Source of the DNA: a virus
IMG/VR virus record: IMGVR_UViG_3300045988_130745
Reading direction: 5' to 3' (one strand)
DNA length: 64,000 nucleotides
Shown here: positions 1,627 to 42,592 of the stretch, piece by piece
How the letters are laid out: every line of letters starts with the position of its first letter
Position numbering within the stretch: position 1 is the stretch's first letter
Program-made: the position numbers and the translations under genes
Notes under the pieces: model-generated
What the model was told of the DNA's origin: nothing
What the model saw: the letters and a program-made list of their open reading frames with translations, nothing else
The model's database searches: none

Positions 1627-1700
1627 TGGGGTATAACCTAATGGCAGGGTAGTGGACTTTGACTCCATATGTAAAGGTTCGATTCCTTTTACCCCAACCA
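1627..1700 (+). tRNA. tRNA-Gln (UUG)
   Basis: U1-A72 acceptor tggggta/tacccca, anticodon loop CTTTGAC, T loop TTCGATT, CCA encoded. Confidence 0.8.
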
Positions 1701-1957: not shown

Positions 1958-2629
1958 ATGTCTATTTGCGGTATTTATAAGATAACTAATTAGATTAATG
2001 GAAAGTGTTATATTGGCTAGAGCGTAAACATTAAAAGACGCTGGTAGGAACATTATAAATTTAATTCAAGAGAATAGGATGCTGTTATTCATTAGGCTTT
2101 TAAAAAGTACGGAATAGAAAATTTTTCTTTTGAAATATTAGAAGAATGTTCCCAAAATTAGTTAGACGATTTAGAAATTAAATGGATAGCTTATTTTGAT
2201 AGTCAAAATCCAAATAAAGGATATAATTGCACATCTGGCGGGCAAGGAACTTCTTAGTGCGATATTAAACTTTCTAAAGAATAGGTTTTAAAAATTCAAG
2301 ACCTATTGATAAATTCTAGCTTATCTTAGAATGATATTGCTAAATAGTTTAATGTGAGTTATCAAACTATTTCAGATATAAATTAGGGAAAATCAAGAAT
2401 TGATGACTAGCAATTTTATCCTCTAAGAAAATGGTCAGTGCAATCAATCCCTTGTCCTTTAGATAGGGAAGATTTAAAAAGGGAAGTTTACACTAAGACT
2501 TTTGCAGAGCTTGGCAGAAGATTTTCTGTTAGACCAGAAGTTGTTTCAAAATGGTGTAAGAAATATGACCTTCCCTGCAAAAAGAAAGAAATTAATTCTA
2601 TCCCAAACGAAATTTGGGAATAGCTTTAA
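1958..2629 (+). CDS. GIY-YIG homing-endonuclease-like protein (copy a), about 12 in-frame TAG
   Basis: Translates as MSICGIYKITN[TAG]INGKCYIG[TAG]SVNIKRRW[TAG]EH, so TAG falls on conserved Gln positions. Frame is open to the TAA at 2627-2629. The ORF track shows only the last 61 aa. Confidence 0.85.
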
Positions 2630-4606: not shown

Positions 4607-5974
4607 ATGCCGCACAGATTTAAAACATACCAAGAAGAAGTTGCGGAAGCTTTACTTCCTGTTGATTTAGTTACAAAAGGAGATTATTATTTAGGAGCTT
4701 GCCGTGAAGTAACATTTTAGATTACTAATGCCTGTAATTTAAGATGTGATTATTGCTACGAATGTAATAAAAGTTCAGAGAATATGTCTCTTGAAACTGG
4801 CAAGAAAATTTGTGATTTAATTTTAAAAGAAATAGATAAGCCAGAAGGATTTTTAGGACGAAAAACTTTAAGAGGTTTAATTCTTGAATTCATTGGTGGT
4901 GAGCCTTTGCTTTGCCCAGATTTAATTGATGGAATTATGTCTTATTTTCTGCCGCGCTTATATATAATTCGCCCTGAACTTGTTCCTTTTGTGAGAATTA
5001 GCTTAACAACTAATGGACAAAATTATTTTGATTCAAAAGTACAGAAATTTTTGAAAAAATATGAAAGCATTATTAGTCTAACTGTTTCTATTGATGGAAT
5101 AAAGGAATTACATGACGCTCATAGAGTCACAATCGACGGTAAAGGCTCTTTTGATAAGGCTATCGCAGCTTTTGAAGACGCAAAAGCACGGGGATGGAGC
5201 TATAGCAAAATGACTTTTGTTCCTCAAAGTTTTCCTTATATTGCGGATTCAATTAAATTTTTAATCAGTGAAAGTATCCAAGATATTTTTTGTAATTATG
5301 CTTATGAACCTTATTATAATCAAAAGGACGCTAAAGAATTTTATTATCAAATGAAAGAAGTAAGTGATTATTTATTTGATAATAATTTAAAAGACATTTA
5401 TATTTCTTGTCTTGATATGCTTGCGGATGGTAAAAGCTCTATGGAGGGAAATTATTGCGGTGGCACTGGTAATATGCTTTCTTTTGATATGAAAGGTAGA
5501 ACTTTTCCTTGCCTACGCTATCATCCCACCTGTCTTGGAGAAGAACTTTCAAGTACCGTTTAGCTCGGAGATTACAATGGTCTTTATCAAACTGAAGCGC
5601 AATGTAAGGCAAGAGATTGTTTAAATTGTATTACTTATAAATCTCAATCAGAACAAAAATGTATTGATTGTCCTGTTAGTTCTAATTGTGGCTGGTGCAG
5701 TGCGAATAATTTGCAAATGACTGGTTCAATTAATAAACGAGTAACTAATATTTGCTGGGCACATAAAGGAAGAGTTTTAGCTGGGTATTATTATTCTGCC
5801 AAACGTTATTTATTATGGCATGATTTTCGTCCTATGAAAATTTGTTTACCAGACGAAGATGCACTTCAAATTATTTCTCAATCTGAGTGGGATGGATTAA
5901 AAGCATTGGTAAATGAAGCAATTACTGTCTTCGAGAAAGAAAAAGACCCTCTACTTATTTCTTAGGAGGGATGA
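4607..5974 (+). CDS. radical SAM / SPASM-domain maturase A1 (anaerobic sulfatase-maturase-like)
   Basis: VTF[TAG]ITNACNLRCDYCYE gives the CxxxCxxC motif. GGEPLL is present. C-terminal CIDCPVSSNCGWC is SPASM-like. Track fragments 4784-5563 and 5711-5965 join in frame through TAG codons. TGA at 5972-5974. Confidence 0.8.
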
Positions 5975-5977
5975 TTT

Positions 5978-6625
5978 ATGAGTTTAACAAAAGGCAGTAA
6001 AGTTGAAGCTTCAGATTGGAATAATCTCGCTGATGCTTATAATTCTGAAATTGTTGATCGTCGAAAGGTAACTAACGTTAAAATCACTGGCGCGCAGATA
6101 GAATAGCAGATTAATTCTAATTCTACTATTGAGCCTTTAATTGCGGGATTGACTGCAACTACAAATGGCAGAATGGTTAATGAAGATGGTTCTTTAAGTT
6201 CTAACACTTATTCAGTTGCAAAAGGTAGAGGGACTTTGATTTATCCTCTTGAAGATCATCAAAAAGTTCTTTTACAGCTTTCTAAAATTAGTGTTTTTGC
6301 AGAGCCAGGTAAGAGCGGTTGCTACGGTAGCTGTGCTGGGTTATGTGCAAGCGGATGTATGGGCAATTGTAAAAATACTTGTACTGCGGCTTGTAAAAAC
6401 GATTGCGAGGGAACTTGTAAAACAGGTTGTACTTCATGTACCGGCACTTGTTCTGGCGGTTGTTCTAGCTGTTAGGGTGGCTGTGAAGGTTCTTGTTCTG
6501 GCGGTTGTAAAGATAGTTGTGTCCAAGAATGTAAATCAAGTTGTCATGATGCTTGTATGGGTTGCCAAAGTTCTCATGCAAGTTAGGGTTGTTCTTATTG
6601 CGAATGTGGTAATTATCCAGGGTGA
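5978..6625 (+). CDS. Cys-rich CxxxC-repeat protein (candidate maturase substrate)
   Basis: 215 aa. About 100 N-terminal residues lack Cys. Then comes a run of more than 25 Cys, mostly spaced CxxxC (CYGSCAGLCASGCMGNCKNTCTAAC...). Three in-frame TAG. TGA at 6623-6625. Confidence 0.75.
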
Positions 6626-6630
6626 TTTAT

Positions 6631-7221
6631 ATGTATCAAGATGGATATGTTACGCGCAGGGGATTTCTTCAAAAAGTTAAAGATGCTATATTTGATATAG
6701 ATATTGATGGAGAATTAAACGATTTTATTTTTAATCGTAAATGTTATGGACCATCAGATTATTCTCTCTTGCCCTTATTATTTTTAAAACTTGTGGCTTT
6801 ACGAAAAATTAATCATGTTCATCTTGAAAAAAATATCCGTTTTATTGTTGATAAAGCGGATATTTATTTTAATTTAGTTTAGCCGCAATATCACAAAGAA
6901 TTTGTTAATCAATTATCTTTATTGCTTTTATTCTTAATGCGGAGTGATAAATTAGCAATTATATTGTCTCAGAATTAGCTAATTCAAGAGATACTCAATT
7001 TTAAATTATTAAATAATTATATTATTATTTATTTTGCTTATATAGTTTTTAAAGAATTTGAAAGTGTTTATTCCTAGGGGAAATATTTAAAGTATTTCCG
7101 CGCGAAAAATCTTTCAATTATTTCTAATCAACTTTATATTTTAAATAATCATATTGAACAAGTAGAATATTTAATTTATAAAGATTATGAAGAAACTTGG
7201 ATGTGGACTTATGGTGACTAA
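6631..7221 (+). CDS. hypothetical protein (cluster A)
   Basis: ATG 6631. The frame continues through several TAG codons to the TAA at 7219-7221. Confidence 0.5.
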
Positions 7222-7540
7222 AAGAGTTTTTTAGCTAAGTGAAAAAGATAGAATTGAATTGATAAATTTAAACCATAGTATTTAGTCATATGAATAGTTT
7301 ATAGCTTTTATTACTAAATAGTTCTATTCAGACACTTGTGTTATTGAGCATAGCGTTTTAAAAGATTGGCTAATTAATTATTCCGAATAGCTGATTGCTT
7401 GGATAGAATAGAGAAATAGATTATGGGAGTCTATTAATGCTCAATTTGAATATAATATTTTGACGATTCCGAAGATTAAAAATATTTCTTATTCTATTGA
7501 TGCAGAGAAAGGAGTAATTATTTATTGTTATGAAAATTGA
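7211..7540 (+). CDS. hypothetical protein (cluster A)
   Basis: ATG 7211. 110-codon frame is open only with TAG as sense. TGA 7538-7540. Overlaps both neighbours. Confidence 0.4.
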
Positions 7541-8810
7541 AAAACGCTTTGGAGCGATGGCTAATTCTGCTTCTATTGTTTTTTAGATTACGGAATCTTG
7601 TAATTTAAATTGCTCTTATTGCTACTAGCATTTTAAAAGTCCTCGGACATTAGATTTAAATACTGCAATAAAAGAATGTCAAGAAATAATTCGGCTTCTT
7701 GAACAAGAAAATGGAATTTTAGGTAAAAATAATGTAAAAGAATTGACTATTTCTTTTATTGGCGGCGAACCATTTCTTTATCCAGAAATAATGGATATGA
7801 TAATTTAGATGTTAATGTCAGGTATCTCTATTGTAAGACCGGATTTATTACCTTTCATAAGACTTTCATTAAATACCAATGGTACACTTTTATAGAGAGA
7901 AGATGTAAAAAAATTTATTCTTAAACATGAAGATATATTAAATATTGCTCTTTCTCTTGATGGTATTAAAGAATTGCATGATAAAAATAGAATTAACCAA
8001 AAAGGAGAAGGAAGTTTTGACAAGGCTTTTAAAAATGGTTTATGGCTAAAAAAGCATGGCCTAGACCATATTAAAATGACTTTTTCAAAAGAAGATATTA
8101 ATTATATAGCTCCCTCTTTAAAATTTTTTCTTGAAAATGGTTTTAAACATATTGTCAGTACACCTATTTACGAAGACATTTATACCAAAAAAGATGCCCA
8201 ATAGGTTTATAAACAATGTAAAGAAATTGGGCAATACGTAATTAGCAATAAAATTTGGGATGAAAGAATTAGTATTCTCAACGAATACCCCGGATAGATT
8301 CTTGATTTTTCTAATTACCCTTGTGAAATTTTCGGAGATTCATTTTGTTTTTCAGTTGATGGGAAAGCATATCCATGTTGTCGTTTTGCTTCAACTTCTT
8401 TAAATAATAATTGTATAAATTATTCAATAGGAGATTGTGAGAAAGGGATTTTTAATTCAAATGATACCCTTTCGCGCGAAGAATTGAAAAAAATGACAGT
8501 CAATACTTGGATTGATAATGAATGTTTGAATTGTCCAATTTCTGGTGGCTGTGGTTGGTGTCCTGCTTATTGCGCGGAATTAGGGCAATTTGGAAAACGC
8601 ACCAAAGGTAACTGTTGGTTTCATCGTGCAAAAATTTTAGCGCTTTATAATTATAAGAATTAGCGTTCGATTATTTTAGGAGACTGTCAACCAGAGCCTA
8701 TAAAAATTCCAGAAGAAATTGCTCTTAAAATTATATCCCAAGAAGAATATGATACTTTAAAAGAGCAATATAGAAAAGCAAAAATTGCGTAGGCTTCGCG
8801 CAATAAATAA
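7530..8810 (+). CDS. radical SAM / SPASM-domain maturase A2 (paralog of A1)
   Basis: IVF[TAG]ITESCNLNCSYCY[TAG] carries TAG at the same position as in A1. GGEPFL is present. CLNCPISGGCGWCPAYC is SPASM-like. 427 codons to the TAA at 8808-8810. Confidence 0.8.
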
Positions 8811-12793: not shown

Positions 12794-13588
12794 ATGTATA
12801 ATCCTATTTGTGGTATTTATAAAATTACTAATTTGATTAATGGACATTGCTATATTGGGCAAAGTAGGAATATTAAGAAACGATGGGAAGAGCATCGAAC
12901 TAGAGCTTTTAATATTAAAGATGATGGATATAATTATCCTCTTTATAAAAGTTTTAGAAAATATGGTCTTTAGAACTTTTCTTTTGAAATAATTGAGCAA
13001 TGCTCAGAAAAGTAGTTAAACGAAAAAGAAAATTATTGGATTTAGTTTTATTAGGCAAATTATAATTAGACTATTGGACAAGATTATTAGGTAGTTCCTA
13101 AAAAATTAACAATAGAGGAAGTACAAGAAATACAAAATTACTTAATTGAAAGTTCAAATGATTCTTTAGATATTTCATTAAAATAGTTGGCAGAAAATTA
13201 TCATGTTTCTTAGCTTACTATTCGAGATATTAATGTAGGACGTTCTTGGGCTAATAGTAAATTAAAATATCCTTTGTACCAATCTAAATATAATCCGAAT
13301 AATAAAATAACTAATAACTATTGTCCTATTTGCGGATAGAAAATTTCTTAGAAAGCTAAATTTTGTCCTCAGTATTATTCAACTATAAATATCAGTCCTC
13401 GAAAAAGTAAAATTAATATCACAAGAGAAGAATTAAAAAGACGAATTAGAATAGAATCTTTTTCTTAGATAAGCAAAGATTTTAATGTTAGTGATAATGG
13501 TATAAGAAAGAAATGCCAAAAGCTAAATCTTCCTTATCGTAAGAAAGATATAGATACTTATTCTGATGAAGAATGGGCAAAACTTTAA
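12794..13588 (+). CDS. GIY-YIG homing-endonuclease-like protein (copy b)
   Basis: MYNPICGIYKITNLINGHCYIGQS... 265 codons are open only with TAG as sense (many TAG). C-terminus resembles copies a, c and d. Conserved leader upstream. Confidence 0.85.
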
Positions 13589-14781: not shown

Positions 14782-17058
14782 ATGAATAAAGTTATTAAAA
14801 GAAATGGCTAGGAAGTTGATTTTAAGATTGAAAAAATTGAAAGAGCTATTTCTGCGGCAAATAATGAAGTCGAAGGTGCAGACAAAATAAGTGTAATTGG
14901 GTTACGCTCTATTGTTGATGAAGTTGAAAGACAATGTGAGAGAGCTACTCATGCGCTTAATGTAGAAGATATTCAGAATATTGTTGAAGAAACTATTATG
15001 GAAGAGGGATATTTTGAAGTCGCACGACATTATATTAAATATCGTTATCTCCATGAAATGATTCGTGACCAATATCAAGTTTTAATGAATGAAGTGTCTA
15101 AGAAACTTGACGCGACTGACATTCAAAATCAAAATGCAAACGTTGACGAAGCATCTTTCGGTGGGCGCCAAGGTGAGGCATCAAATTATTTAACTAGTCA
15201 ATATGCTCTTGATTATTGTATGTCAAAAATGGCAAGAGAAAATCATTTGAATAATGAAATTTATACTCATGATCTTTCTTCTTATGCTGTTGGTTGCCAT
15301 AATTGTTTGACAATTCCTTTTGATGATTTACTTGCAAAAGGTTTTAATACTCGTCAAACAGATGTTCGTCCCGCGCAATCGGTTAGTACTGCTTTTCAAT
15401 TAGTTGCAGTTATTTTTCAAATTCAATCATTGCAACAATTCGGTGGAGTTAGTGCAAGTCATCTTGATTGGACAATGGTTCCTTATGTAAGAAAGAGCTT
15501 CCGTAAGCATTATCGAGACGGTAGAAAATATATCTATTTTGATAATGAAGGGGATAGAGTCAGAGGAATTGCTGATGAAGCGGTCTTGGCTAAAGATGAT
15601 TTTAGTATTACCGATCCTATTTTTGAAAAATATTATCCAAAAGCATATAAATATGCAATGGATATGACTGAACGCGAAGTCCATCAAGCTGTTGAGGGAA
15701 TGTATCATAATCTTAATACTCTTCAGTCTCGCTCTGGCAATCAATTACCGTTTACTTCAATTAATTACGGGACTTGCACTTTACCCGAAGGACGCATGAT
15801 TACTAAAGCTTTGCTTGAAGTTTCTATTGACGGTATTGGAGAATTGCATAGAACTTCTATTTTCCCTTGTGGTATTTTTCAAGTAATGAAAGGTGTTAAT
15901 AAAGAGCCTGGTACTCCTAACTATGATTTGTATAGATTGGCTTTAAAGTCAACAGCTCAGAGACTTTATCCTAATTATGCCAATGTTGATTGGAGTGGTA
16001 ATGCTGGTTATGATAGGAATGATCCTCGTACTTACTTTTCAACCATGGGCTGTAGAACTGCAAATGGCTGGGACATTAATGGTTTTGGTCAATTAAAAGA
16101 TGGACGCGGAAATATTTGCCCAGTAACAATTATTCTTCCTACACTTGCAATGGAAGCAAAAGAGTATATTCTCAAACACTCTACTGGTGAAGATCTCGAA
16201 GGACAAACAGTTGATAAATTTTTGTCTGTTCTCGATCAAAAATTGTATGAAGCAAAAGATCAATTAATTGAGCGTTTTGAATGGATTTGTAAGCAAAGTC
16301 CAGAAGCCGCGAAATTCATGTATGAGAACAATGTTATGGCTGGATATAATCCAGAAGAAGGAATCCGCTCTGCTTTGAAACATGGTACTTTAGCTATTGG
16401 TTTATTAGGCATGGCAGAAACACTCCAAATTCTTATTGGATGCAATCAACTTGAACCAGAAGGTATGGAACTAGCTAAACGAATTTGCCAGTTGTATAAA
16501 ATTCGTTGTGCAGAATTTAAAGAGCAATATAAATTAAATTTTGGTGTTTACTACACTCCCGCTGAAAATTTATGTTATACTGCGATGAAGAAGTTCCAAA
16601 AAAAATACGGTAAGATTCCTAATATTTCTGATAGAGATTTCTTTACTAATTCTATTCATGTTCCTGTTTGGGAAGAAATAGATATTTTCAAAAAGATTGA
16701 CATTGAATCTCAATTAACTGGATATTCTAGCGCGGGTTGCATCACTTATATTGAACTTGACTCAGGCGCAAAACATAACATTGATGCTCTTGAAACAATA
16801 GTTAATTATGCAATGGACCATGATATTCCTTATTTTGCAATCAATGTTCCTAATGATATGTGTATGGATTGCGGCTATACTGATGAAATTGGTAACGATT
16901 GTCCTCAATGTCATGGCGAAAATATTCGTCGTTTGCGCAGAGTGACAGGATATTTAACTGGTGATTATAAAACTGCTTTTAATCCTGGCAAGCAAGCCGA
17001 AGCAGAAGCAAGATTTAAGCATAGTAAAATTACCAAATTTGGGAAAGGGAATAATTAA
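14782..17058 (+). CDS. nrdD: anaerobic ribonucleoside-triphosphate reductase with N-terminal ATP-cone
   Basis: MNKVIKRNG[TAG]EVDF is an ATP-cone start. C-terminal CMDCGY..CPQCHG zinc ribbon and RRVTGYL glycyl-radical motif. In frame with track ORF 14998-17058. Confidence 0.9.
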
Positions 17059-17777
17059 TGGTTTATCAAGGTTCAAAATCGAGAGTAGCTAAAGATATTT
17101 GTCCTATTATTCAAAAAGCAATAGATGAATCAAATTGTGATACATTTATTGATGCCTTTGTTGGCGGTGCGAACCTAATCTAGCATATTAAATGTGAAAA
17201 TAGAATTGGATATGATATTAATCCTTATCTGATTGCATTACTTAATAATTTAGATAAGATTCCAAATTTTGAAGTCCCTATTTCAAAAGAAGAGTATGAT
17301 ATTTGTCGAGCTGAGTGGCGCTCCGCTCAATTAACACATCCAGACTGGTATATTGGTGCCGTTGGCTATATTGCTTCTTTTGGTGGAAGATTTTATGATG
17401 GTGGATATGCAAAAGATGTTCCAGCAAGCGACCCAAAACGGCATGAACATCGTAATAGAAAGAATAACATTCTTAAACAGACACCAGAATTAACTGGTTG
17501 CAAATTTGAAGTAAAAGATTTCTTTTCTCTTGATTGCACGAATGCCATTATTTATTGCGATCCACCTTATAATGGAACTAAGCCTTATCCATATGATAAC
17601 TACGATAAAGAAGCGTTTTGGAATAAGGTTAGAGAATTATCTGAACATAACCAAGTCTTTATTTCTGAGTTGAGCGCACCAGATGATTTTAAGATGGTTT
17701 GGCATAAGAAAATTAAAAATACTGTCGGATTAAATAATTCTCTTGACCAAGTCGAGAAACTATTTATTAAGAAATAA
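17058..17777 (+). CDS. N6-adenine DNA methyltransferase (Dam-like, D12 class)
   Basis: YQGSKSR near the N-terminus and CDPPY catalytic motif. One in-frame TAG. TAATG overlap with nrdD. Confidence 0.75.
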
Positions 17778-17782
17778 CATTA

Positions 17783-17811
17783 GAAAGTCAGGCTTTAATG
17801 CTTGACTTTCT
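17783..17811 (+). terminator. hairpin terminator overlapping the next -35 box
   Basis: Stem agaaagtcaggc/gcttgactttct followed by a T run. Confidence 0.5.
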
Positions 17812-17830
17812 TTTTCTTTTGTGATATAAT
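17802..17830 (+). promoter_or_regulatory. family promoter
   Basis: TTGACT 17802-17807 and TATAAT 17825-17830. Confidence 0.75.
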
Positions 17831-17858
17831 ATTTATAGAAATATGAAAGAGGTGCTTT

Positions 17859-18989
17859 ATGGAATTAAGTATTGAACAGCAAATGGCTGTGGAAACCAAT
17901 GCTGAAAAAGTCCTGGTTATTAGCTGTGCGGGAGCAGGTAAAACCCGTACTCTAACTGAACGCGCGAAGTATTTGCTTCTTAATGGAGTAAAACCATCAG
18001 AGCTTATTCTTATTACATATACAAATAACGCTGCGCAGGAAATGAAAGATCGTTTATCTGATTGTCCTGGCTTTGATAAGGTGTCTATTGGTACAATCCA
18101 TAGTTATGCTGCGCAATTACTTTCGATGAACAAAATTGGATTGGATAATATTCTTGAACGCGCGCGCGAAGATGACGATTTTGATAGCCTTTTCCGCGAA
18201 GTGAAAAAGCATCTGAATACGATGTTTATTCCCACTATTGACCATCTGCTCATTGACGAGTTCCAAGACGTAGCTCCGCAAGAATATGAGTTCATTAAAA
18301 CAATTTTAAAGCCAAAACATTTTTTCGCCGTTGGTGACCCGCGTCAGATGATTTATTCTTTTAAGGGCAGTTCAAAAGAAGTATTCAATAGCCTATACAA
18401 TGATCCGCAAACAAAGATTTTTGAGCTGACTGAAAATTATCGTTCTCGTTCTGGCATTCTCAAAGTTGCACAACAAGCTATTCGAGATCTTGATGAAGCT
18501 GCGATTACAGATGTTGTTCCGATGAAGCGAGGAATGGCAGAAGTTACTTCTATGGCTTTTGATATTCCTGCAGTCGCATATATGCTTAAAGAACGTGGCG
18601 ATTATAAGGACTGGTTTGTTCTTGCGCGTTCAAATAAACTTGTCGCAGAAATTGCGGCAGAATTTGACGCATTAGGTGTTCCTTATGTCAATTTTCGCCA
18701 AGCAGAAAAAACGACTGAGGAAATCCATCAATTGATGAATGAGAATGTTGTTAAATTACTTACCATCCACTCTGCTAAAGGACTTGAATCTAAGAATGTT
18801 GTTCTGTTTGAGAATTTCTTAGGTAACAATCGTTATTCTCAGGAAGCAAGAGACGAGGAACGTCGTATCCGTTATGTCGGTATCACTCGTGCGGAAGATA
18901 AACTTGTACTTGTCAAGCAAAAGCGAGCAGGTCGTGCGAGGATGCAAAGACCTACAAATTTTAATTATGCTCGAGGTTTTGGATTTTGA
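17859..18989 (+). CDS. UvrD/PcrA-like superfamily-1 helicase (short form)
   Basis: Walker A CAGAGKTRT, DEFQD, GDPRQMIY and VGITRA motifs. Confidence 0.8.
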   Translation: MELSIEQQMAVETNAEKVLVISCAGAGKTRTLTERAKYLLLNGVKPSELILITYTNNAAQEMKDRLSDCPGFDKVSIGTIHSYAAQLLSMNKIGLDNILERAREDDDFDSLFREVKKHLNTMFIPTIDHLLIDEFQDVAPQEYEFIKTILKPKHFFAVGDPRQMIYSFKGSSKEVFNSLYNDPQTKIFELTENYRSRSGILKVAQQAIRDLDEAAITDVVPMKRGMAEVTSMAFDIPAVAYMLKERGDYKDWFVLARSNKLVAEIAAEFDALGVPYVNFRQAEKTTEEIHQLMNENVVKLLTIHSAKGLESKNVVLFENFLGNNRYSQEARDEERRIRYVGITRAEDKLVLVKQKRAGRARMQRPTNFNYARGFGF

Positions 18990-19498
18990 ATTATGCAGGA
19001 ATAAAGTATTTTGATATTGCAAATGCGCCGGGTGTTGGAGTAAGTCTTTTTGTGTCTGGATGTCCTCTTCATTGCGAGGGATGTTTTAATTCCGAAGCGC
19101 AAGATTATAATTTTGGAGAGCCTTATACAAATAAAACTACTTCTACTATTGTAGAGTTTTTTAAGAAGCATCCACAAGTGAAGAGCTTTTCCCTTCTTGG
19201 CGGGGAGCCTTTTGCATAGGACGTTAATGGACGTTCTCATATAGCCCACCTTGTGCAAAGGCTAAGAGATGAAACTCAATGTGAAAATTATTGGGTTTGG
19301 TCTGGACAGAAATTTGAAGATTTAATTCAAAAGCCAGAGGGTAAACTACTTTTGATGTTTGATGTGTTGGTGGATGGTCCTTTTGAACTCGATAAAAAAG
19401 ATCTCAGTCTGGCTCACAGAGGTTCTTCAAATCAGCGAATAATTGATTTAAAGCATTTCTTTAAAACGGGTGAGGTCGAATTATGGAGTGAATCTTAA
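18986..19498 (+). CDS. nrdG: anaerobic RNR activating enzyme (radical SAM)
   Basis: MNYAGIKYFDIANAPGVGVSLFVSGCPLHCEGCFN. Track ORFs 18986-19219 and 19253-19498 are in frame and join through one TAG. TTG start. Confidence 0.85.
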
Positions 19499-23448: not shown

Positions 23449-23796
23449 ATGCTTTCTACACAAGGAACAAACATCACAATCACTCGTGGAGATAGTGCTT
23501 ATATCACAGTTTCCATTACTGATTCTAAAGGCAACCCCTATACTCCAGGTCCCGACGATAAGATTCGCGCGCAAGTTAGACAGGATGCTTCTGCCACAAA
23601 AATATTGTTTGAAAGTCAAATTCCTTACGATACTCTTGTTTGGCATATAAAACCAGAAGACACCGCTCAAGCGCAAATGGGCAAATCTTATGTTTATGAC
23701 ATGGAGATTGAGACTGCCGAAGGCGATGTTTTTACTTTTATTCCTTTGTCTAGTTTCACCGTAAGCAAGGAAGTGACTAGAATTGGAACAGAATGA
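23449..23796 (+). CDS. hypothetical structural-module protein
   Basis: 115-aa ORF with a GGAGGGAGAGG SD. First gene of the tail-fibre block. Confidence 0.55.
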   Translation: MLSTQGTNITITRGDSAYITVSITDSKGNPYTPGPDDKIRAQVRQDASATKILFESQIPYDTLVWHIKPEDTAQAQMGKSYVYDMEIETAEGDVFTFIPLSSFTVSKEVTRIGTE

Positions 23797-24370
23797 AATT
23801 TTATATGGTGCGATAAAAAATTAGTCTTCTCTTGAAGGTGTGCTTGATGCAACTTCACTAAGCGGTGACATTGCGTGCTATTCTACTTTATCTGGCGCTC
23901 TTGCGGCTGATGGTAGTATTTCTGGCGCGCTATCTAATCCTGTTTTACGTGGTTACTCTGCTTATGCTATTGCAGTCATGCATGGCTTTAAAGGCACAGA
24001 GAAAGAATGGCTAGATAGCTTAAAGCCTGTAAATGGAGTTGATTACTTCATTGATGAAGACAAAATCGTTGAAACGGTTAAAGCTGATTTAAAAGATACT
24101 TTTGTTGTAAGACGAGATGGCTATTCTTTAATCTCTTTAACCGATATTGCTAAATTAACTAATATTGCTGATAGAGCGACTCGCGTAGAACCATCTACTA
24201 TCAATGGTAATATCATTATCAATGGCAAAGAAACAAAGGTTTATCGCGGGCTTCCTCTTGATGATTCCGAATATATAAAGAACCAAGATGAGGTTCGATT
24301 GTGCTCTGGTGGCGCCGCAGATGATTATGGCTTCGGTAAAGAGGACGATACATTCATCTTTGAGGGGTGA
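23783..24370 (+). CDS. tail-fibre-module protein (paralogous N-terminus to 36792-37139)
   Basis: ILYGAIKN[TAG]SSLEG...[30 protein letters not shown] parallels the protein at 36792. The TTG start is uncertain. Confidence 0.5.
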
Positions 24371-24375
24371 GATAA

Positions 24376-26217
24376 ATGCCGGGTAAAACACTAAAAACTA
24401 GAATACAAAACAAAGTTGACTCATTAGCTAACTTACAAGCTAATAACCCCTATATTCTTGCGGGCGAGCTTGTAACTGCTTACACTACCGTTGGAGTTAA
24501 GCAAGAGGATGGTAATGTAGTTCAAAAGAGAGTCGCTTATATCTATGTAGGTCCGGGCAACTTTAACGACTTGTATCCTATTGTAGGACCTTCTGCCGAT
24601 GTTAAGGCTTGGGCCAAGGTCGATAATTTTGTCGATGTCGTTATTGAAAAATTAACTAAGACTGACGAGAAAGGCGACATTGCTGAGAATGATACAGTTA
24701 ATACAATGATTAACCGTATCAATAATAACTTCGCGCAAATTAAAACTGATATGCCATCTAAGACTTCTGATTTAACCAATGATGGCGAAGGTGCTGAAGT
24801 TCCTATTAAGGATTTCATTACTGGTTATGAGTCTTATTAGTTTGTAAGTCGAGATTCAGTTAAAAATTATATTAACACTTTTGGTTTGCAAGACCTAGAA
24901 GAAATCAAAAAGAAACTTGCCGAACTCGAAAAGAAAGTTGATGATAATTTAAAGGCGATTGATGAACGCTTTAAGTTATATTATACTAAGACTGAAATTA
25001 ACGATTTACTTGCTGGTTATCTTAAAGGTGTTTAGATTGGCGATAAAGATGGCGGAGTTGTACTCAGTCCTGCTTCTACTGTGGTCACTTCTGGACAGCT
25101 TTGGACTCAGATTAAAGATGCTTCTCAAAAGGATATTGAGAAGATTGCTGACGCAGCTGCTTCTACTGCTCTCAGTCAAGCTAAGACTTATACTGATACT
25201 AAGTTAAGTGAATTTATCACTATTTCTTATAAAGGCCCTTATGATTCTTATGCGGCTTTACTTGCAGACAATGTTGATGGCGGTAAAGCTGGTGTCATTT
25301 ATCTTGTAAGTCATAACCATAATGATAATGATAGTTATGATTCAACAGATAGTGATATATTTGATGAGTACATTTGGGTTACACGTCAAGATGGTGGGCA
25401 ACCTGGCTTTGAGAAAGTTGGTAATACAGATGTTAAGTTAAGCAGCTATCTCCAGGCCGCACTCAAAGAAGATAAAACTGGGGTTCTTGAAGGCGACGAA
25501 GGTTCTGTCTCTAAAATTGAGGTTGTTGAAGATCCTGTTGGTAGTGGCAACAAGTTCTTTAAAGTAACTTATAAGACTTTAATCAAGAGTGAGACATTTG
25601 ATGCTGGTAAGGTTGCTGTTGGTTTTGGTAATGGTGCATTAAAATCATCTGCTTTAGTCAATATTCCTTTAGCTGGTATCGTAGCAGGTAGCGCAGAATC
25701 TGATATTAACGAAACCACTACATTGGGTGGGGCAATTAGAAACTTAGAAACCAAGATTGCTGATGCAAAAGCCGACGGTGTTAAAGAGGTTGATATTGCT
25801 ACCGATGGCGGCGTTGATGTTAGTGGTGGCCCGATTACAAATAAGGGCACATTAAAGGTTAGCCACTCTTTAAGAGCAACTGCAACTTCTGCTGTCAGTG
25901 ATACTGTTGGTTCCGCAGATGAACGCACTTACGTTAAAGAAATTGCTCTCGATAAATATGGTCATATTGTTAATGTTACTACTGGTAAGGAAACAAATGT
26001 TGATAGTTATGCTACCGGTGGTTCATTTGCTGCGGATAATACAAAAATTGAATTAACCGTTACTGGCACTGGTCCTAATTTCAAAACATTTAAAGCAGGA
26101 CTTAATAAATTGCCTGCTATGTTATTATCTCAAACTGATGCCGAAGATGATTTTTTAGTACTTTATTGTGGCACCAGTAGCATTTTAGCTTCAACAGAAC
26201 AAATCAATTATACCTGA
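24376..26217 (+). CDS. tail fibre protein
   Basis: Track ORFs 24376-24840 and 25081-26217 are in frame and join through TAG codons (614 codons). Ala/Thr/Gly-rich fibre-like sequence. Confidence 0.65.
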
Positions 26218-26232
26218 TAAGGTGGTGAGTTG

Positions 26233-26634
26233 ATGCTCAAGGCTAGAATACAACTTAAAAAAGACACCAGCGAGGCTTGGCGCATCAATAATCCTGTTCT
26301 ATTGGATGGCGAAGCTGGTTATGAATCAGATACAAATTTAATGAAAGTTGGCGATGGGATTCATCGCTGGCTTGAATTAGACTATACAAACTCTGGTGCA
26401 ACTGCGATAGCAAGTACAGCTAACTATGCTATTAATGCTGGTGCGCTAGGCGGAACTTCTGCGGCTGATTGGGCTAAGAAGTTTGACAATTATGTTTTAA
26501 ATACTCGAATTGAAGCCGTTATGTCAACTGCTTCAGCCGCGGACAAAATACCAACCTCAATAGCAGTTACTAATTGGGTTAAGTCGCAAAATTTCGCGGG
26601 TGCCGGTGATATTACTACTTGGGAGGACTTTTAA
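26233..26634 (+). CDS. tail-fibre-like protein
   Basis: IQLKKDTSEAWRINNPVLLDGEAGYESDTNLMKVGDG resembles the N-terminal domain found in phage tropism and hyaluronidase-type fibres. Confidence 0.55.
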   Translation: MLKARIQLKKDTSEAWRINNPVLLDGEAGYESDTNLMKVGDGIHRWLELDYTNSGATAIASTANYAINAGALGGTSAADWAKKFDNYVLNTRIEAVMSTASAADKIPTSIAVTNWVKSQNFAGAGDITTWEDF

Positions 26635-28880
26635 TGGCTAATAAATTATTAAAACCAAAGAGAGGTAGGGTAGAGAACCTGCCTAAATTGGCTGTTGAAG
26701 ATGGCTCTCTTATTTTTGCTTATGATACCAAATCTCCCACTAGTACTGTTTTAGTTGATGTTGGAGAAACTAGATATGAATTATCTGCGGCGACGGCAAA
26801 GAAAGCAGATGATTCTAATGCTCTTGGCGGCAGTAGTCTTCAAAATATTGTTGACAAGATTGACAATGCGACGGGTGATGGAACTGCCTTTACTGGTTTA
26901 GATACTACTACTAATAATAAAGTAAAACTGACAAGAGCCAATGGAACTACAGTTGAAAAAACAATTAATAATGTTTCTAATGCTTCGACTGCTGATTACG
27001 CAAAAGTAAGCAATAAAATTGGAACTGGGACTATTGGTTCGTCAACTAAACCAGTTTATATTAATGCTGGTACCCCTACTGCGGTTAGCTCTATCCCATC
27101 TACTTTTGTTGCAGCATCGCAAATAAATGGTATTAATCTTGATACTTTGCGCACGCCAGGTATGTATTGGGCTGGTGGTGGCAATACTAATACTAATAAG
27201 CCCACGGGTATTGATGCTTTTGGTTTAGAAGTTCTTTAGAGTGCGGCCGGATGGTATACTCAAATTTGCTATGCTTCTGATGATTAGGAGAAACAATTCG
27301 TTCGTTATTATGATGCAGGAACAAAAGTTTGGAAAGATTGGGTTGAATAGAACCGTTTAAACACTAAAACTCAAAGTGGTTACGCCCCTGCACCGAATGC
27401 GGCAAATAAAGTTTATCGTACTGACGCGAGTGGCAATCCTGGTTGGGGCACATTAAACGACAGTTCTATTGGTAGACTTGCGTCTACTGTTACTTTTGGT
27501 GACGGTGGTCCTGCGGTAATTGATTAGAATAATGAAACTTATCGCCAGCGTATCAATATTTTCGATAATGCAACAGCTAATGACGCGGTATTTAGTTTCT
27601 AGCAATCAACAGATGCCGGTAAGACCTATAAAGATTTATTTGCTATTAATGATAATGGTACTGTTATTGCTGGTACATTTCAAGGCGCACTTAAAGGAAC
27701 AGCAGATTATTCAAAGAACTCTGGCGCTCTTGGTGGCAGTAGTTTAAAAAATATTATTGATAAAATTAATAGTTCTACTGGTGATGGTACCGCTTTTACT
27801 GGTTTAGATATAACTATAAACAATAAGGTTAAATTAACCAGAGCCAATGGTAGCACAGTTGAAAAGACAATCAATAATGTGTCTAATGCTTCAACTGCAA
27901 ACTATGCTAATAGCGCGGCAAATGCTTCGACAGCAGAGTATGCTAAAAGCGCACCACCAACCGTGAATTCTGTCAATTATGTCCGAGTTTATAATAGTTC
28001 CAATGTCGGTGGAAGCAATACTGTAACTGTCAATGATTTATCAAAGAAGCATTTTGCTCAAGGCATGATTAATTCTGCGACTGATAATCCATTAGGTAAA
28101 GCTGGCTGGGTTCATGTGCAAAGTATGGCTTGGGCAGATGGTAGTGATTAGTGGGCTTCTCAAATTGCTTTTGATGTTCAAAATGGTACTGGCGCTTACT
28201 ATCGTTCTTCTAACGGCAGTGGACATTTAGCTGGACGTGACTGGAATAAATTCCTTGATAGTTCAAATTATACAGAATATGCTGCTGATAGAACTGCTCT
28301 TGTAAGCGCTTTGGCATCCAGCTCAAAAGTCACTTTTACAAGGGCAAATGCGGGAACATTTGCTATCAATATTAACTATGTAGAAAATGCTTCGACAGCA
28401 AATAATGCAAACAAGCTAGGCGGACTTCCATCAAGTGAGTACGCCCTTAAAAGCCAATTAAGTGGTGATATTAATGCTTTGTCTGCTAAACGCTTGCCAT
28501 CTTATCAATCAATCTCTGTAGCTAACTCTTTCTTCTATCGTTACGGTACAGCTGGTAATACTTCTGATGGCGGAGCTTGGACTGGATTTCCTTCAGCGAT
28601 TCTCTACAATGCCGATTCAACTGTTAATGGCTTCGGCAATGCGCTTTTTCAAAAGAAAGTTGGTGTTCTTCACTTAGCAGCTGGTTCTTCTGCTCATGAC
28701 CTTGTATTTCAAGCTGGAGGTACCAATGGCGGTATTGCTTATGTTGCAACTGGACGTAATCCCGCATACATTCTCGACACTCTTAACTACAAAGATAAAG
28801 CATATACATTTAACAAATTAACTGCAACCAGTACATTTACGGCAACTGGTGGCGTAGTTATTGACGGGGGAAGTTATTAA
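26634..28880 (+). CDS. large tail fibre protein with an internal duplicated module
   Basis: 749 codons, assembled in frame from track ORFs 26619-27239, 27879-28151 and 28311-28880 through TAG codons. Confidence 0.65.
26820..27000 (+). repeat. intragenic repeat, copy 1 (about 180 nt)
   Basis: GGSSLQNIVDKIDNATGDGTAFTGLDTTTNNKVKLTRANGTTVEKTINNVSNASTADYA recurs with few changes at 27727-27907. Confidence 0.75.
27727..27907 (+). repeat. intragenic repeat, copy 2
   Basis: GGSSLKNIIDKINSSTGDGTAFTGLDITINNKVKLTRANGSTVEKTINNVSNASTANYA. Confidence 0.75.
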
Positions 28881-29683
28881 TGGCCTTACAATTAATGGGC
28901 GCAGCGCCTACGGCAAAAGAAATCGGAAGTTACTTGGACTTCCACGTGGACGCGAATAAAGGTGCGAAAGATTATGATGTAAGACTTCAAGCTAAAGATA
29001 GTGAACTTGATGTTATTGGTTCAAAAGGCGATTCAAGTACTATCCTCAAAGTTGGTAGCAATTTTATGGCTTGGACAGATTCCGAAGGTGGTAATATTCG
29101 TATCTATTCTCCATCTCAAGCCTATTTTTATGAGATGGATGCATATAATCATAGTTTAAGGATTGGTGGTAGAAAAGTAAGCAATGGTGCTTTTAAAAGT
29201 ATTACACTTCTTGACACTGATGGCTATTCAACTTTCAATCGCGCCTATAATGCTGTCTATAATGATTATGCTGAATTTTTCCCTCGTGGAGAAGACACAG
29301 AGCCTGGTGACATCATCGCTCTTGATGATTCTGTTGACCAAGAGCAATACGTTAAAGCCACTATTGATTCTTGTCGAGTCGTTGGAATTCATTCTAACGA
29401 ATATGCTTTTTTAATTGGTGGTGAAAATCCACCGGAAGGACAAGATTTTTACTCTTACAATATTTCTAAATATATCCCAGTTGGTTTAGCAGGACGTTGT
29501 AGAGTTAAAGTTCTCGGTCCCATTCGCAAAGGTTAGGATATAATTCCTACTTCTATCCCTGGTGTTGGACGTGCGTTTAATAAAGAAAAAGATAATCCGT
29601 CACTTCTTTATTTGTCTGTTGGTTTTGCTGTTGAAAACTCAACAGACGAGTCAATCAAATTAGTCCGCGTGAAATTAAAGTAA
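28880..29683 (+). CDS. tail-fibre-associated protein
   Basis: Track ORF 28880-29536 is extended through one TAG to the TAA at 29681-29683. YNDYAEFFPRGED..GDIIAL resembles fibre C-terminal chaperone or peptidase-like domains. Confidence 0.5.
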
Positions 29684-29694
29684 GGTGAAAATCA

Positions 29695-30633
29695 ATGGCT
29701 ATTCAAATGAAACGCCAAGGTGGAGGGGTATCGAATAATGCAACTGCGATTATTCCTACTGCTCTTGCTTATGGCGAAATTGGCATTGATAGTGCGGGTA
29801 ATATTTATTGCGGCAATGGTAAAACTCAAGTTACCTCACAAGTTAAAAATGCCGCTAATGTTCTTTTTTTATATAAAGGGACCTATAAGAAAAACGGGTG
29901 GATTGAGAATAGCGTAAATAGTACTTGGTCTTAGACAGTTACAATTACCGCTCAAGATGGTGGTCCTGCAATTAAAGCAGATTTTACATTGTCTGCGCCC
30001 ATGGCTGCGTAGACGGACAACCGTGAAACTAATGAGCAACGTCAAGATGCTCTTAGCGTAATTGCTGCAGGCAAATGTACTCCAAATGATAGCGGTCAAA
30101 TCACTTGTTTGGTTTTTGAAAAACCATCAATAGACCTTGATGTTTATTGGTATGCGCGATTGTCTGGCGGTTACGATTCAATGGTAGATGCACAAGGGGT
30201 CGGTTCTATTGTTGATTCTGCTGTAAATAAAGCAATAGATGATTTAAAATCAAATATTTCTTCTATTGTTGATAATGCAATTAATAGTAGTAATGTATAT
30301 ACTAAAATCAATGGTGTTTGTGCAGTTTATCGCGCGAAGTATTTAGCTTCAGGTTGGATGGCAGTATCTTCCGATGGTTATAATTACTATCAAGAGGTAA
30401 CTACTTCTAAGGTATCTGATGGTAGCGCCAATTTGAATGCGTCAAGTATATTCTTGACTCCTGGCTTCTTCTTACCGAGTGGCACAGCATCAACTGATGC
30501 AGCTTATGCACAAGCAATGGGTATTATCAATGATGGTTATTCAACAAGTGGTACAAATAGAATTATGACCTATACTACAGCTAAACCAATTAGCGATATA
30601 TGGGTTTATTGGGTGGTTAGAGAAGCGGTATGA
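29695..30633 (+). CDS. tail-module protein
   Basis: Track ORFs 29695-29934 and 30109-30633 are in frame and join through two TAG codons. Confidence 0.55.
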
Positions 30634-31202
30634 TTTATGATGAATTAACTGGTGAAGTAATTGAGAATCCAGACCTTACAAAAGGCAAAGTTTATACTGA
30701 AGAAAAAGTTATTGGACGCAAAGAAGCTCAACGGGTTCTTCTTGAAGGTAGTATAACTGACTTTGACCCAGAGGGCTGTTGGATGGAGATACCAGCCGAA
30801 GATATAACTGAGACTGTTGAAAAGTATCACAAATATACCATCGACGAATTGATTGCATAGCAGCAAGCCGCGATTAAGCCAAATGATACTTCAATTTCTC
30901 AAGAAAAAAAACTTGAGCTGTTGCTTAATGCTATACCCACTGCCGCTTATCCAACCGAATCACCTAAGGTAGGCTATAAATGGTCTCCAATGTATAATAA
31001 TGAAGCGGGATTTGGTTGGGAAATGGTAGCTGATCCAGACGCTTTTGGCACTCAAGAAAGACCTTTATATTGGAAAGAAGGTATGGAGGTTAAAGCTGGA
31101 TACTATTATACAGATAAAAGTGAACGGCTGATGCTTGCTGTTGAGAATGGAGTGCCTGATTATTTTGGTTAGTACACTTTTATGGAAGAAATGACTAGTT
31201 AA
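30630..31202 (+). CDS. tail-module protein
   Basis: Track ORFs 30630-30860 and 30921-31172 are in frame and join through TAG. TAA at 31200-31202. Confidence 0.5.
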
Positions 31203-31215
31203 GAGGTATAAGTTT

Positions 31216-31335
31216 ATGGGTACTTTATCTAGGGGGGGGGCTACAATGCCCTTACCTCGTTGTGTACATTTGGAAACGAACGGCTTAATCATTAGTTTGA
31301 CTTTTCTTTCTATTGATGGTATAATAAAATAGTAA
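31216..31335 (+). CDS. short ORF with a G9 tract after a conserved MG-x-L-S-R start
   Basis: MGTLSRGGG... shares its start with the two poly-C genes downstream. May be a remnant or a leader. Confidence 0.3.
31232..31240 (+). repeat. homopolymer G9
   Basis: Read directly from the sequence. Confidence 0.9.
31297..31325 (+). promoter_or_regulatory. family-like promoter
   Basis: TTGACT 31297-31302, 17-nt spacer, TGGTATAAT. Confidence 0.6.
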
Positions 31336-31357
31336 TTAAATATTGAGGGAGATAGTT

Positions 31358-31757
31358 ATGGGTAATATTCCAAGAACTACCCCCCCCCCCCGATACATCA
31401 TTAAGTCTATCGGGAGTGGCGGCAGATTCTAAAATAGTTGGCGATTAGATTTCAAATTTAACATCATCTTTAGATACTAAATTTTTTTCATCTGAAATTC
31501 CTGCTAATTCGACTTTAACCTAGTCGTTTGACAAATTACGTTATGGACATGGGCAATGCGGTTCTGTTTATCTGTCTGCATCAAATGGCGTGCCGGCTTC
31601 ATGGTATTGGTATATTTACATACCTCATCGAGATGGTGGCAATGTTAGTGGCAGCGATAATATGCAATATGGTGTTTTAATCTTAATTGATTTTTGGTCA
31701 AATGCTTTTTATATCGCACGTTATACAAATGGCACAATTAATGTCCGTTCAATTTAA
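31358..31757 (+). CDS. tail-module protein interrupted by a C12 tract (out of frame as sequenced)
   Basis: ATG 31358 gives MGNIPRTT then the poly-C tract. The long downstream frame (DTSLSLSGVAADSKIVGD... to the TAA at 31755-31757) is in another phase. C11 or C14 would fuse the two. Confidence 0.5.
31380..31391 (+). repeat. homopolymer C12
   Basis: Read directly from the sequence. Confidence 0.9.
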
Positions 31758-31776
31758 ATATTAAGGAGAAATTTTT

Positions 31777-32327
31777 ATGGGGAGTATTCCTAGAGCTAAT
31801 ACCCCCCCCCCGTAATAGATAAAACTCTATCGGTGGAGGGTGCAGTAGCAGAAAGTAAAGCGGTTGGTGACAAATTTAATTCAACAATTTTATCTTCGCC
31901 GTTATATAAATCAAAATTTGTTACCGGCTTAGGAATTTACAATTACAATTTTGGCCAACTTGCGACTAATGTAATTACAAAATATCAAGATGGTTCTTTT
32001 CTTGTTGAAATTACATTTGTAGGACATTAGCATAGCATTAGCTCAAATTCAGCTTTTGATTGGCTAAGCGGCAATGGCTTAACAGAAGACGCAAAAAGTC
32101 TAACTGGTAAAAGCAATTATAAACCAACAGCTAATTGTTTCCCCCTATTGGGCAAAGGAGTAATTCCTGCCGAAGAAGGATATAGTCCTTATGTTAGATT
32201 AACTGGAATTAATGGACATCTAAGAGTTGGACGTATTTATGAAGCAACTGCCAATCTAGGTGATTACCAGAACTCTGTATAGCACACTGGTAATTATAGT
32301 TTTAGAATTACTTTAATTCTTTATTAA
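31777..32327 (+). CDS. paralogous tail-module protein interrupted by a C10 tract (out of frame as sequenced)
   Basis: ATG 31777 gives MGSIPRAN then the poly-C tract. The downstream frame (VIDKTLSVEGAVAESKAVGD... to the TAA at 32325-32327) needs C8 or C11 to fuse. Confidence 0.5.
31802..31811 (+). repeat. homopolymer C10
   Basis: Read directly from the sequence. Confidence 0.9.
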
Positions 32328-32348
32328 TTATATAAAATTCTTAATGTT

Positions 32349-32380
32349 AGTGCTCTCCATATTGGAGGGCACTTTTATTT
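32349..32380 (+). terminator. intrinsic terminator
   Basis: Stem agtgctctcc/ggagggcact followed by a T-rich run. Confidence 0.65.
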
Positions 32381-32412
32381 TAGAACAAAATTTTTTATAG
32401 GAGGAAATCGCA

Positions 32413-34770: not shown

Positions 34771-34782
34771 GAGGTGATTGAA

Positions 34783-35106: not shown

Positions 35107-35109
35107 CCT

Positions 35110-36602: not shown

Positions 36603-36613
36603 GGAGGTCTATT

Positions 36614-36787: not shown

Positions 36788-36791
36788 TTTT

Positions 36792-37139: not shown

Positions 37140-37143
37140 GTTA

Positions 37144-42552: not shown

Positions 42553-42560
42553 CATATATT

Positions 42561-42589
42561 GGGTTGGAAGAAATTCCAGCCCATTTTTT
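42561..42589 (+). terminator. intrinsic terminator
   Basis: Stem gggttggaa/ttccagccc followed by T6. Confidence 0.7.
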
Positions 42590-42592
42590 GTA

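Follow-up and report, generated by a model that had tools for sequence, protein, structure and literature searches.

The stretch of DNA analysed here (the window, all 64,000 nucleotides of it, from the IMG/VR virus record IMGVR_UViG_3300045988_130745) most likely reads the stop codon TAG as glutamine (Gln) through a phage-encoded tRNA with the anticodon CUA, tRNA(CUA), as in genetic code 15; we put the probability of this reading at roughly 0.93. The window is part of a tailed gut phage of ~176-179 kb that most likely uses genetic code 15. At the centre of the analysis stands a GIY-YIG homing-endonuclease gene at 1958-2629, for which, as for much of the window, an earlier note made from the sequence had proposed that TAG encodes Gln. 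The proposal is borne out by the exchange of TAG with CAA and CAG among orthologs, by the enrichment of Gln in homologs that carry no TAG, and by the presence of tRNA(CUA).

Many genes run full length only if TAG is translated

The GIY-YIG gene extends from ATG at 1958 to TAA at 2627-2629, a frame of 223 codons without TAA or TGA, and AGGAG is located eight bases 5' of the ATG. Within this frame we counted 13 TAG codons, where the earlier note had given about 12; their first bases are 1991, 2018, 2045, 2075, 2093, 2159, 2255, 2282, 2327, 2345, 2384, 2408 and 2621. The product, with TAG masked as X, matched Pfam PF01541 over residues 4-82 (E=3.6e-9), and the domain therefore spans six of the TAGs. 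Helix-turn-helix-like segments are located C-terminal of the GIY-YIG domain, and the last TAG falls within a conserved EEWxKL tail. Gene calls with translation table 11, the standard table, miss the gene entirely. The window contains five GIY-YIG copies (1958-2629, 12794-13588, the C-terminus of 19830-20900, ~45105-45881 and 48027-48773), which mostly adjoin tRNA genes. The motif comparisons made in the earlier note were recovered from them: YIG[TAG]S stands against YIGQS in the copies 12794-13588 and 19830-20900, and RRW[TAG]EH against KRWQEH in the copy ~45105-45881.

Across the window, all genes are located on the plus strand. Coding density was calculated as the share of the window covered by greedy, non-overlapping open reading frames (ORFs) of at least 60 amino acids on this strand, and amounted to 64.0% with table 11, 82.5% with TAG as sense codon, 64.2% with TGA as sense codon and 72.7% with TAA as sense codon. 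With ORFs of at least 100 amino acids the corresponding values were 49%, 75%, 50% and 60%, and a density classifier operating on both strands returned 0.50, 0.80 and 0.56 for tables 11, 15 and 4. The rise from 64% to 82% agrees with the earlier statement that an ORF track under the standard table under-calls this region. The ORFs tile head to tail once TAG is sense. Up to 128 in-frame TAGs are found, and 42 of the 83 plus-strand genes (51%) carry them; this count is a maximum, as about 20 of the TAGs occur among the opening 30 codons of the longest ORF, and in a few ORFs, such as 10404-11972, 32344-34770 and 55824-57197, a TAG probably lies 5' of the true start. Together with 416 CAA and 125 CAG codons, TAG accounts for 19% of the Gln-type codons (TAG, CAA and CAG).

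No in-frame TAA or TGA occurs in these genes, while hundreds of TAA and TGA occur off frame. The gene stops are TAA (51) and TGA (31). In each of the 41 genes that carry no TAG the stop is TAA or TGA, and the absence of TAG stops among them would have a probability of ~2e-5 if TAG were as frequent a stop as in a standard-code relative of recoded phages, in which 34 of 146 genes end in TAG (Borges et al. 2021, 10.1101/2021.08.26.457843). Six TAGs lie within six codons of a stop, compared to ~3.6 expected as calculated from the window counts. No window gene needs TAG as terminator. The claim that TGA and TAA end every gene holds partly by construction.

Pfam domains continue across the TAGs in the GIY-YIG protein, NrdD, both radical-SAM proteins, YcaO, the reverse transcriptase, the D12 methylase, the NrdG-like activase and the collagen-like fibres, which agrees with the view that many genes are full length only with TAG translated. 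In both SPASM/radical-SAM genes a TAG is positioned five residues before the first Cys of the CxxxCxxC motif (4718-4720 and 7584-7586), as described previously, and in-frame TAGs were likewise recovered in NrdD (codon 10), the NrdG-like activase, the D12 methylase, the reverse transcriptase, YcaO and the large collagen-like fibre genes. Two items of that list did not stand. The product of 21552-22382, given as ThyX-like, had no Pfam or PDB sequence match and fell only into a PHROG family without known function (the NrdG-like activase had no PDB sequence match either), and not every tail-fibre gene carries TAG, as the fibre block includes the TAG-free small genes 26230-26634, 34774-35106, 36593-36787 and 37144-37461. 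Single-site programmed read-through, in which one leaky stop is followed by an extension, was considered and rejected, as up to 13 TAGs lie inside single catalytic domains.

The base following in-frame TAG also differed from that following CAA or CAG, with C in 20% versus 8% and G in 23% versus 36% of cases (P=4e-4); after the true TAA and TGA stops, T follows in 46%. This hints at selection for poorly terminating contexts.

TAG exchanges with CAA and CAG among orthologs

The closest database hits of the GIY-YIG protein have Gln at all 13 positions, and the DNA at these positions is TAG; on look-up, the locus was reported not to translate to the query. Proteins of this phage lineage are present in the public collection as code-15 translations (P0001-P0003, loci L001-L005). 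Gln in close protein hits is therefore circular, because the source had translated TAG as Gln, and the amino acid has to be tested on DNA. For this reason a protein-level tabulation over 116 database homologs, in which Gln was enriched 8-fold at the TAG columns, was set aside as partly circular.

We compared the window with the DNA of relatives from IMG/VR, Logan and ENA at an identity of at least 80%, covering 15,667 codon sites in 76 genes. The IMG/VR relatives, for which NrdD, a fibre protein and the YqeY-like gene described below had served as queries, are located on contigs of 176-179 kb; complete relatives of this size are IMGVR_UViG_3300045988_129985 and _138203. Samples in which the phage occurs include the sources of ERR11458004, SRR29133839, SRR29133599 and SRR33405542. 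At 87 of the 107 covered window TAG sites, TAG is present in every relative. Variable TAG sites swap solely with CAA or CAG in 44 of 60 cases. Among 63 exchange partners of TAG, 47 were Gln codons, followed by Arg (4), Trp, Ser, Glu and Pro (2 each) and Tyr, Asp, Lys and Leu (1 each). In an earlier subset, Gln was the partner in 38 of 51 exchanges, compared to 2.1% of the endpoints of other changes; the binomial tail of 5e-53 is to be read as an order-of-magnitude statement, because the events are not phylogenetically independent. This share of 75% Gln lies within the range in which ordinary amino acids exchange synonymously (42-79%).

The same pattern is visible in single genes. In a GIY-YIG ortholog with 72% nucleotide identity (L005), 3 of the 13 window TAGs are kept and 5 of the other 10 are CAA or CAG; conversely, 3 of its 4 private TAGs align to a CAA in the window. 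The TAG of the NrdG-like activase is CAG in both closest relatives, and that of the reverse transcriptase (codon 148) is CAG in two relatives. In the radical-SAM cluster 4607-8810 the TAGs are kept in orthologs, with codon 378 of g11 being CAA in one relative, and throughout the fibre block 23783..39881 many swaps between TAG, CAA and CAG occur. The codon exchange among orthologs strongly suggests that TAG behaves as a synonymous Gln codon.

Gln is enriched at TAG columns in homologs without TAG

More distant evidence came from bins of cellular genomes, in which 80 GIY-YIG homologs were found, 56 of them without any in-frame TAG in the aligned part as checked in the DNA. In these 56 homologs Gln occupies 16% of the TAG columns compared to 2.6% of the positions elsewhere, a 6.3-fold enrichment; no other residue is clearly enriched, Lys coming next with 1.8-fold. 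At the YIG-Q-S column, 45 of the 56 have Gln. The tabulation of homologs thus favours Gln for the GIY-YIG family in this set, whereas distant homologs of single genes gave weak results (see below). The more general claim that the TAGs of the GIY-YIG gene fall where the family has Gln could not be sustained: Gln dominates 2 of the 13 columns and the rest are variable, with K, E, R, N or D. The second of the two columns (residue 124) is Gln-dominated only in the protein-level set, which includes code-15 calls.

The window encodes a tRNA with the anticodon CUA

ARAGORN predicted 28 tRNA genes in the window. One of them, at 3558-3633, has the anticodon CUA and was labelled 'Pyl'. The predicted tRNA(CUA) folds into a cloverleaf in which the acceptor stem has 7 bp and the anticodon stem 5 bp; the D loop contains GG, the anticodon loop reads CU-CUA-AC, the variable region has 4 nt and the T loop contains TTCGA. 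It has U1-A72, G73 and an encoded CCA, and its sequence is identical in three independent assemblies. A tRNA for pyrrolysine is typically built with a 6-bp anticodon stem, a 3-nt variable loop and a small D loop without GG. The label was therefore discarded on account of the canonical cloverleaf with GG and TTCGA, and a Pfam scan of ~36 larger window proteins gave no pyl genes.

U1-A72 is a hallmark recognized by both glutaminyl-tRNA synthetase (GlnRS) and GatCAB. Among the 28 ARAGORN tRNAs it is present only in tRNA(CUA), in tRNA-Gln(UUG) at 1627-1700 and in an atypical call of 93 nt at 12534-12626. Furthermore, tRNA(CUA) and tRNA-Gln(UUG) have in common the C32/U33/A37/C38 context of the anticodon loop and the T arm GGTTCGATTCC.

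Some other tRNA calls are irregular. The 93-nt call at 12534-12626 (+) was reported as 'Ile(tat)', possibly contains an insertion and is without an encoded CCA, which the other tRNAs have; the call at 62621-62697 (+) has an irregular anticodon loop with the anticodon reported as 'cc'. Rfam detected two tRNA-like genes missed by ARAGORN, one at 14397-14465 (+) with an apparent 8-nt anticodon loop (UGAAAGAC) and one at 61509-61581 (+) that resembles tRNA-Glu(UUC) and has C at position 33. Outside the window, ARAGORN placed CUA tRNAs beside or inside GIY-YIG homologs at three loci (L094, L096 and L129) on contigs of bacterial or archaeal metagenome-assembled genomes; two of these contigs have 150-165 kb and are probably phage. 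The structures of these tRNAs are doubtful, and they were not used.

TAG is used unevenly along the window

The share of TAG among the Gln-type codons reaches 50-65% in the three full-length GIY-YIG genes (odds ratio 7.6 compared to the rest, P=5e-11). Values of 44-86% were obtained for one radical-SAM gene and several small genes, and values of only 3-14% for NrdD, the methylase, NrdG, the reverse transcriptase and the largest fibre genes. TAG is nearly lacking in two blocks: between 42.1 and 47.5 kb, excluding an inserted GIY-YIG gene, TAG makes up 0 of 34 Gln-type codons (P=7e-4), and between 51.0 and 55.3 kb it makes up 1 of 36 (P=5e-3). Both blocks consist of short genes with a higher GC content at third codon positions (GC3) and with CAG at least as frequent as CAA. 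Recoding is thus not uniform; the statement that it extends across much of the window holds for 42 of 83 genes, but not for these two blocks, whose genes may be early ones or may have been acquired recently from a source with the standard code. With regard to timing, the pattern comprises the two TAG-free blocks and recoded fibre genes, yet single TAGs occur in genes of nucleotide metabolism. A gene at 10482-11972 (DUF2828/DUF7788) with 0 CAA, 14 CAG and 45% GC was noted in addition.

A YqeY-like gene is conserved in the lineage

Located in the first of the TAG-free blocks is a YqeY-like gene (43553-44002), which itself is TAG-free, uses CAG as its only Gln codon and has 43% GC. Its product reaches 52 bits against Pfam PF09424 (cut-off 27), with residues 5-143 aligned to positions 3-142 of the 143 of the profile, and belongs to PHROG 1460, 'tRNA amidotransferase'. 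YqeY forms one family with the tail domain of GatB, a domain that binds tRNA-Gln. The gene is present in all close relatives, and homologs elsewhere are at most 45% identical. An IMG/VR scan with it returned only relatives of the same lineage, GenBank gave two weak hits, no named bacterial neighbours of the protein were found, and in other relatives no YqeY gene was found near NrdD. The nearest homolog outside the lineage (45% identical) is located on a contig of 1.4 kb, and the alignment is too divergent for a pattern scan.

Other features of the window

The features are compiled in Table 1. The clusters 4607-8810 and 55288-60636 both have the look of peptide modification of the RiPP type (ribosomally synthesized and post-translationally modified peptides); in the first, radical-SAM genes flank the Cys-rich gene 5978-6625. 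The six genes from 55288 to 60993 carry 14 in-frame TAGs, and when IMG/VR was scanned with one of the radical-SAM genes of the second cluster (55.8-57.2 kb), no relatives of this cluster were returned. An RtcB RNA ligase gene (63374-64000, +, cut by the end of the window) and a calcineurin-like phosphoesterase gene (8880-9596) accompany the large tRNA set, which suggests functions in tRNA repair.

Table 1 Features of the 64,000-nucleotide window, with in-frame TAG counts where available
Position	Strand	Feature	Details	Basis
1627..1700	+	tRNA-Gln(UUG)	standard Gln decoder	ARAGORN
1958..2629	+	GIY-YIG homing-endonuclease gene	13 TAG, 7 CAA, 0 CAG; stop TAA	
3558..3633	+	putative suppressor tRNA	anticodon CUA	ARAGORN, Rfam, fold
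4607..8810	+	radical-SAM cluster		Pfam
4607-5974	+	radical-SAM gene	3 TAG	
5978-6625	+	Cys-rich gene	215 aa, 3 TAG	
6622-7221	+	gene within radical-SAM cluster	3 TAG	
7187-7540	+	gene within radical-SAM cluster	6 TAG	
7530-8810	+	radical-SAM gene	8 TAG	
12794..13588	+	second GIY-YIG homing-endonuclease gene	11 in-frame TAG	
14782..17058	+	NrdD	one TAG (codon 10, ATP-cone)	Pfam ATP-cone 3-92, NRDD 118-747
17058..19498	+	D12 methylase, UvrD-like helicase, NrdG-like activase	1, 0 and 1 TAG	Pfam
19830-20900	+	gene with GIY-YIG copy at C-terminus		
23783..39881	+	tail-fibre and collagen-like block	18 genes, 32 TAG	
40714..41874	+	reverse transcriptase	one TAG (codon 148)	Pfam
42115..47426	+	block compatible with standard code	0/34 Gln-type codons TAG, higher GC3	
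43553..44002	+	YqeY-like gene (GatB tail-domain family)		Pfam PF09424, PHROG 1460
~45105-45881	+	GIY-YIG gene inside TAG-free block	7 TAG	
48027..48773	+	GIY-YIG homing-endonuclease gene	6 TAG	
51063..55245	+	second nearly TAG-free block	1/36 Gln-type codons TAG	
55288..60636	+	two radical-SAM genes and YcaO cluster	GC3 0.17	Pfam

Relatives and comparison with known systems

The E. coli suppressor supE (glnV, a tRNA-Gln with the anticodon CUA) competes with release factor 1 (RF1) at UAG and inserts Gln there. Unlike supE, a chromosomal point mutant with partial suppression in whose background TAG is still a stop, the window has a virus-encoded tRNA and viral genes adapted to it.

A megablast search with 24 kb of window sequence gave no match among GenBank phages. 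Judged by NrdD, the nearest phages in culture have Thomasclavelia ramosa as host (67% identity), with phAss-1 at 41%; the window holds no terminase for clade placement. When the density classifier was applied to 80 IMG/VR loci with a related NrdD (L006-L085), 29 appeared TAG-recoded, about 10 of the TGA type and the rest standard; the TGA-type relatives are contigs of 125-136 kb with NrdD 70-72% identical. By this measure the genetic code is variable within the NrdD-defined group, which matches published within-clade code switching.

Code 15 has been described for gut phages of the crAss-like, Lak, Jade, Sapphire, Agate, Garnet and Amethyst clades, and the same study reported clades mixing codes 11, 15 and 4, suppressor tRNAs, a strongly recoded intron endonuclease, recoded structural modules dispersed across large phage genomes, and 26-71% recoded genes in phages of standard-code hosts (Borges et al. 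2021, 10.1101/2021.08.26.457843). In crAss-like gut phages, Gln at TAG was identified by metaproteomics (Peters et al. 2022, PMC9523058). The phage of the window resembles the code-15 gut phages in the share of genes with in-frame TAG (51%, against the published 26-71%), the tRNA(CUA), the low GC, the dispersed recoded structural modules, a genome of more than 100 kb and relatives with codes 11, 15 and 4. As with the TGA-recoded intron endonuclease of Agate, a homing endonuclease is among the most recoded genes. The phage differs from published code-15 phages in that its genes of nucleotide metabolism also carry single TAGs, and no 'code-change module' of release factor 2 or a synthetase was seen in this window.

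The phage phAss-1 of the proposed Phassvirus (OQ749652) has 136 kb, 36 tRNA genes and three suppressor genes (Babkin et al. 2023, PMC10607447). Like the phage of the window it is a tailed, tRNA-rich phage of the human gut with a tRNA-SUP-CTA; it has TAG in 41 ORFs, including fibres, was re-annotated with table 15, and no dedicated synthetase was found in it (PMC10607447). Differences are the only distant relationship (NrdD 41% identical), the genome size (~176-179 kb here) and the number of suppressor tRNAs, one in the window versus three. Similar to the dual-coded crAss-like genomes detected with Mgcod (bioRxiv 10.1101/2022.06.29.495998), standard-code blocks alternate with recoded blocks; in contrast to those, the blocks are short and interleaved, and a recoded endonuclease is located inside a TAG-free block.

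Discussion

The reading of TAG as Gln explains the window best, and several observations weigh against it. About a quarter of the TAG exchanges among orthologs involve codons other than those for Gln, and most TAG columns are variable positions, not conserved Gln. In distant GIY-YIG homologs, the column log-odds of Gln (+3.8 bits) are not clearly separated from those of Lys (+3.0 bits). At the TAG columns of the radical-SAM gene, the PDB homologs, which are too distant, never have Gln; the residues found are H, K, A, M, E, N or D. The columns of NrdD codon 10 and of the NrdG TAG are variable in 80 relatives, being T/R/S- and P-dominated, and are thus uninformative on the amino acid. The tRNA(CUA) scored 31.5 bits with the Rfam tRNA model at a gathering score of 29, has one bulged A in the T stem, and is without the G10 and G3-C70 of the identity set of E. 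coli GlnRS; its Gln identity, drawn only from U1-A72, G73 and the resemblance to tRNA-Gln, is plausible, not proven. Finally, the window showed no gene for a release factor or an aminoacyl-tRNA synthetase.

Some of these points might be taken to mean that TAG is a sense codon for another residue, such as Lys, Glu, Tyr, Trp, Leu or pyrrolysine. K, E or R is abundant at many TAG columns, Lys nearly equals Gln at the GIY-YIG columns of distant homologs, and ARAGORN labelled the CUA tRNA 'Pyl'. The exchanges among orthologs, with 47 for Gln against 1 for Lys, 2 for Glu, 1 for Tyr, 2 for Trp and 1 for Leu (n=63), render any such residue very unlikely, and pyrrolysine is further at odds with the canonical cloverleaf and with the lack of pyl genes among the larger proteins scanned with Pfam. 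Distinctly unlikely, too, is that TAG acts mainly as a terminator that is weakly suppressed, so that little full-length protein is made and the TAGs mainly throttle or silence genes. The uneven use of TAG, with homing endonucleases in which it makes up 5% of the codons, would fit such a role, the host RF1 is presumably still competing while the window shows no gene related to release factors, and the shift from G to C after TAG compared to CAA/CAG fits selection on suppression efficiency. However, essential-looking enzymes and all large fibre genes contain TAG, and a gene with 8-13 TAGs would be left almost without product unless suppression at each codon were efficient. Moreover, TAG is avoided as terminator in the 41 genes with an unambiguous stop, and it drifts with CAA and CAG in the manner of a synonymous codon.

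That the TAGs are errors of sequencing or assembly, or mark decaying pseudogenes, has next to no probability. Disrupted table 11 ORFs are all that speaks for it, whereas the frames are broken by TAG only and never by TAA or TGA, the protein domains are intact over the TAGs, and the conservation of 87 of 107 TAG sites across independent assemblies from different samples effectively refutes it. It is, in turn, highly improbable that the host itself reads TAG as Gln and the phage mirrors the code of its host, as code-25 phages do with code-25 hosts. The phage has its own tRNA(CUA), and the use of TAG in about half of the genes together with its avoidance in two blocks is the pattern of recoded phages on standard-code hosts. 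The Thomasclavelia ramosa phages that are nearest by NrdD among those in culture are densely annotated in their GenBank records. We know of no bacterium described to read TAG as Gln.

If TAG is read as Gln, the phage tRNA(CUA) at 3558-3633, which looks like a derivative of tRNA-Gln, would decode TAG, and only TAA and TGA would terminate. Enzymes of the host would charge it with Gln, either directly by GlnRS or via Glu-tRNA and subsequent amidation by GatCAB. The host presumably uses the standard code. The TAG-free genes could be translated before the suppressor accumulates, and translation of the TAG-bearing ones would be delayed, as in the temporal-switch model (Borges et al. 2021).

The YqeY-like protein might, speculatively, serve as an accessory in the formation of Gln-tRNA for the suppressor. 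An extended version, which we consider unlikely, holds that it is made first and helps the GatCAB or GlnRS of the host to yield Gln-tRNA(CUA), and that the five TAG-preferring GIY-YIG endonucleases stay silent until the switch. If true, this would be a new protein component of a phage code change, and recoding would act as a leash on selfish elements.

For the annotation of this phage the consequences are direct. Gene calling with the standard table truncates or misses about half of the window genes, so that the window has to be annotated with table 15. Standard gene finders lose about one fifth of the coding sequence, including the five homing endonucleases, the two radical-SAM/YcaO clusters, all large fibre genes and the reverse transcriptase. 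Automated pipelines already apply code 15 to this lineage, which entails a methodological warning, as Gln at TAG in close protein hits is circular. Stop-codon recoding in phages is already established; the window adds one large gut phage lineage and leaves the picture unchanged. Codes 11, 15 and 4 all occur among its relatives, and the finding matters mainly for annotation and will not surprise a specialist.

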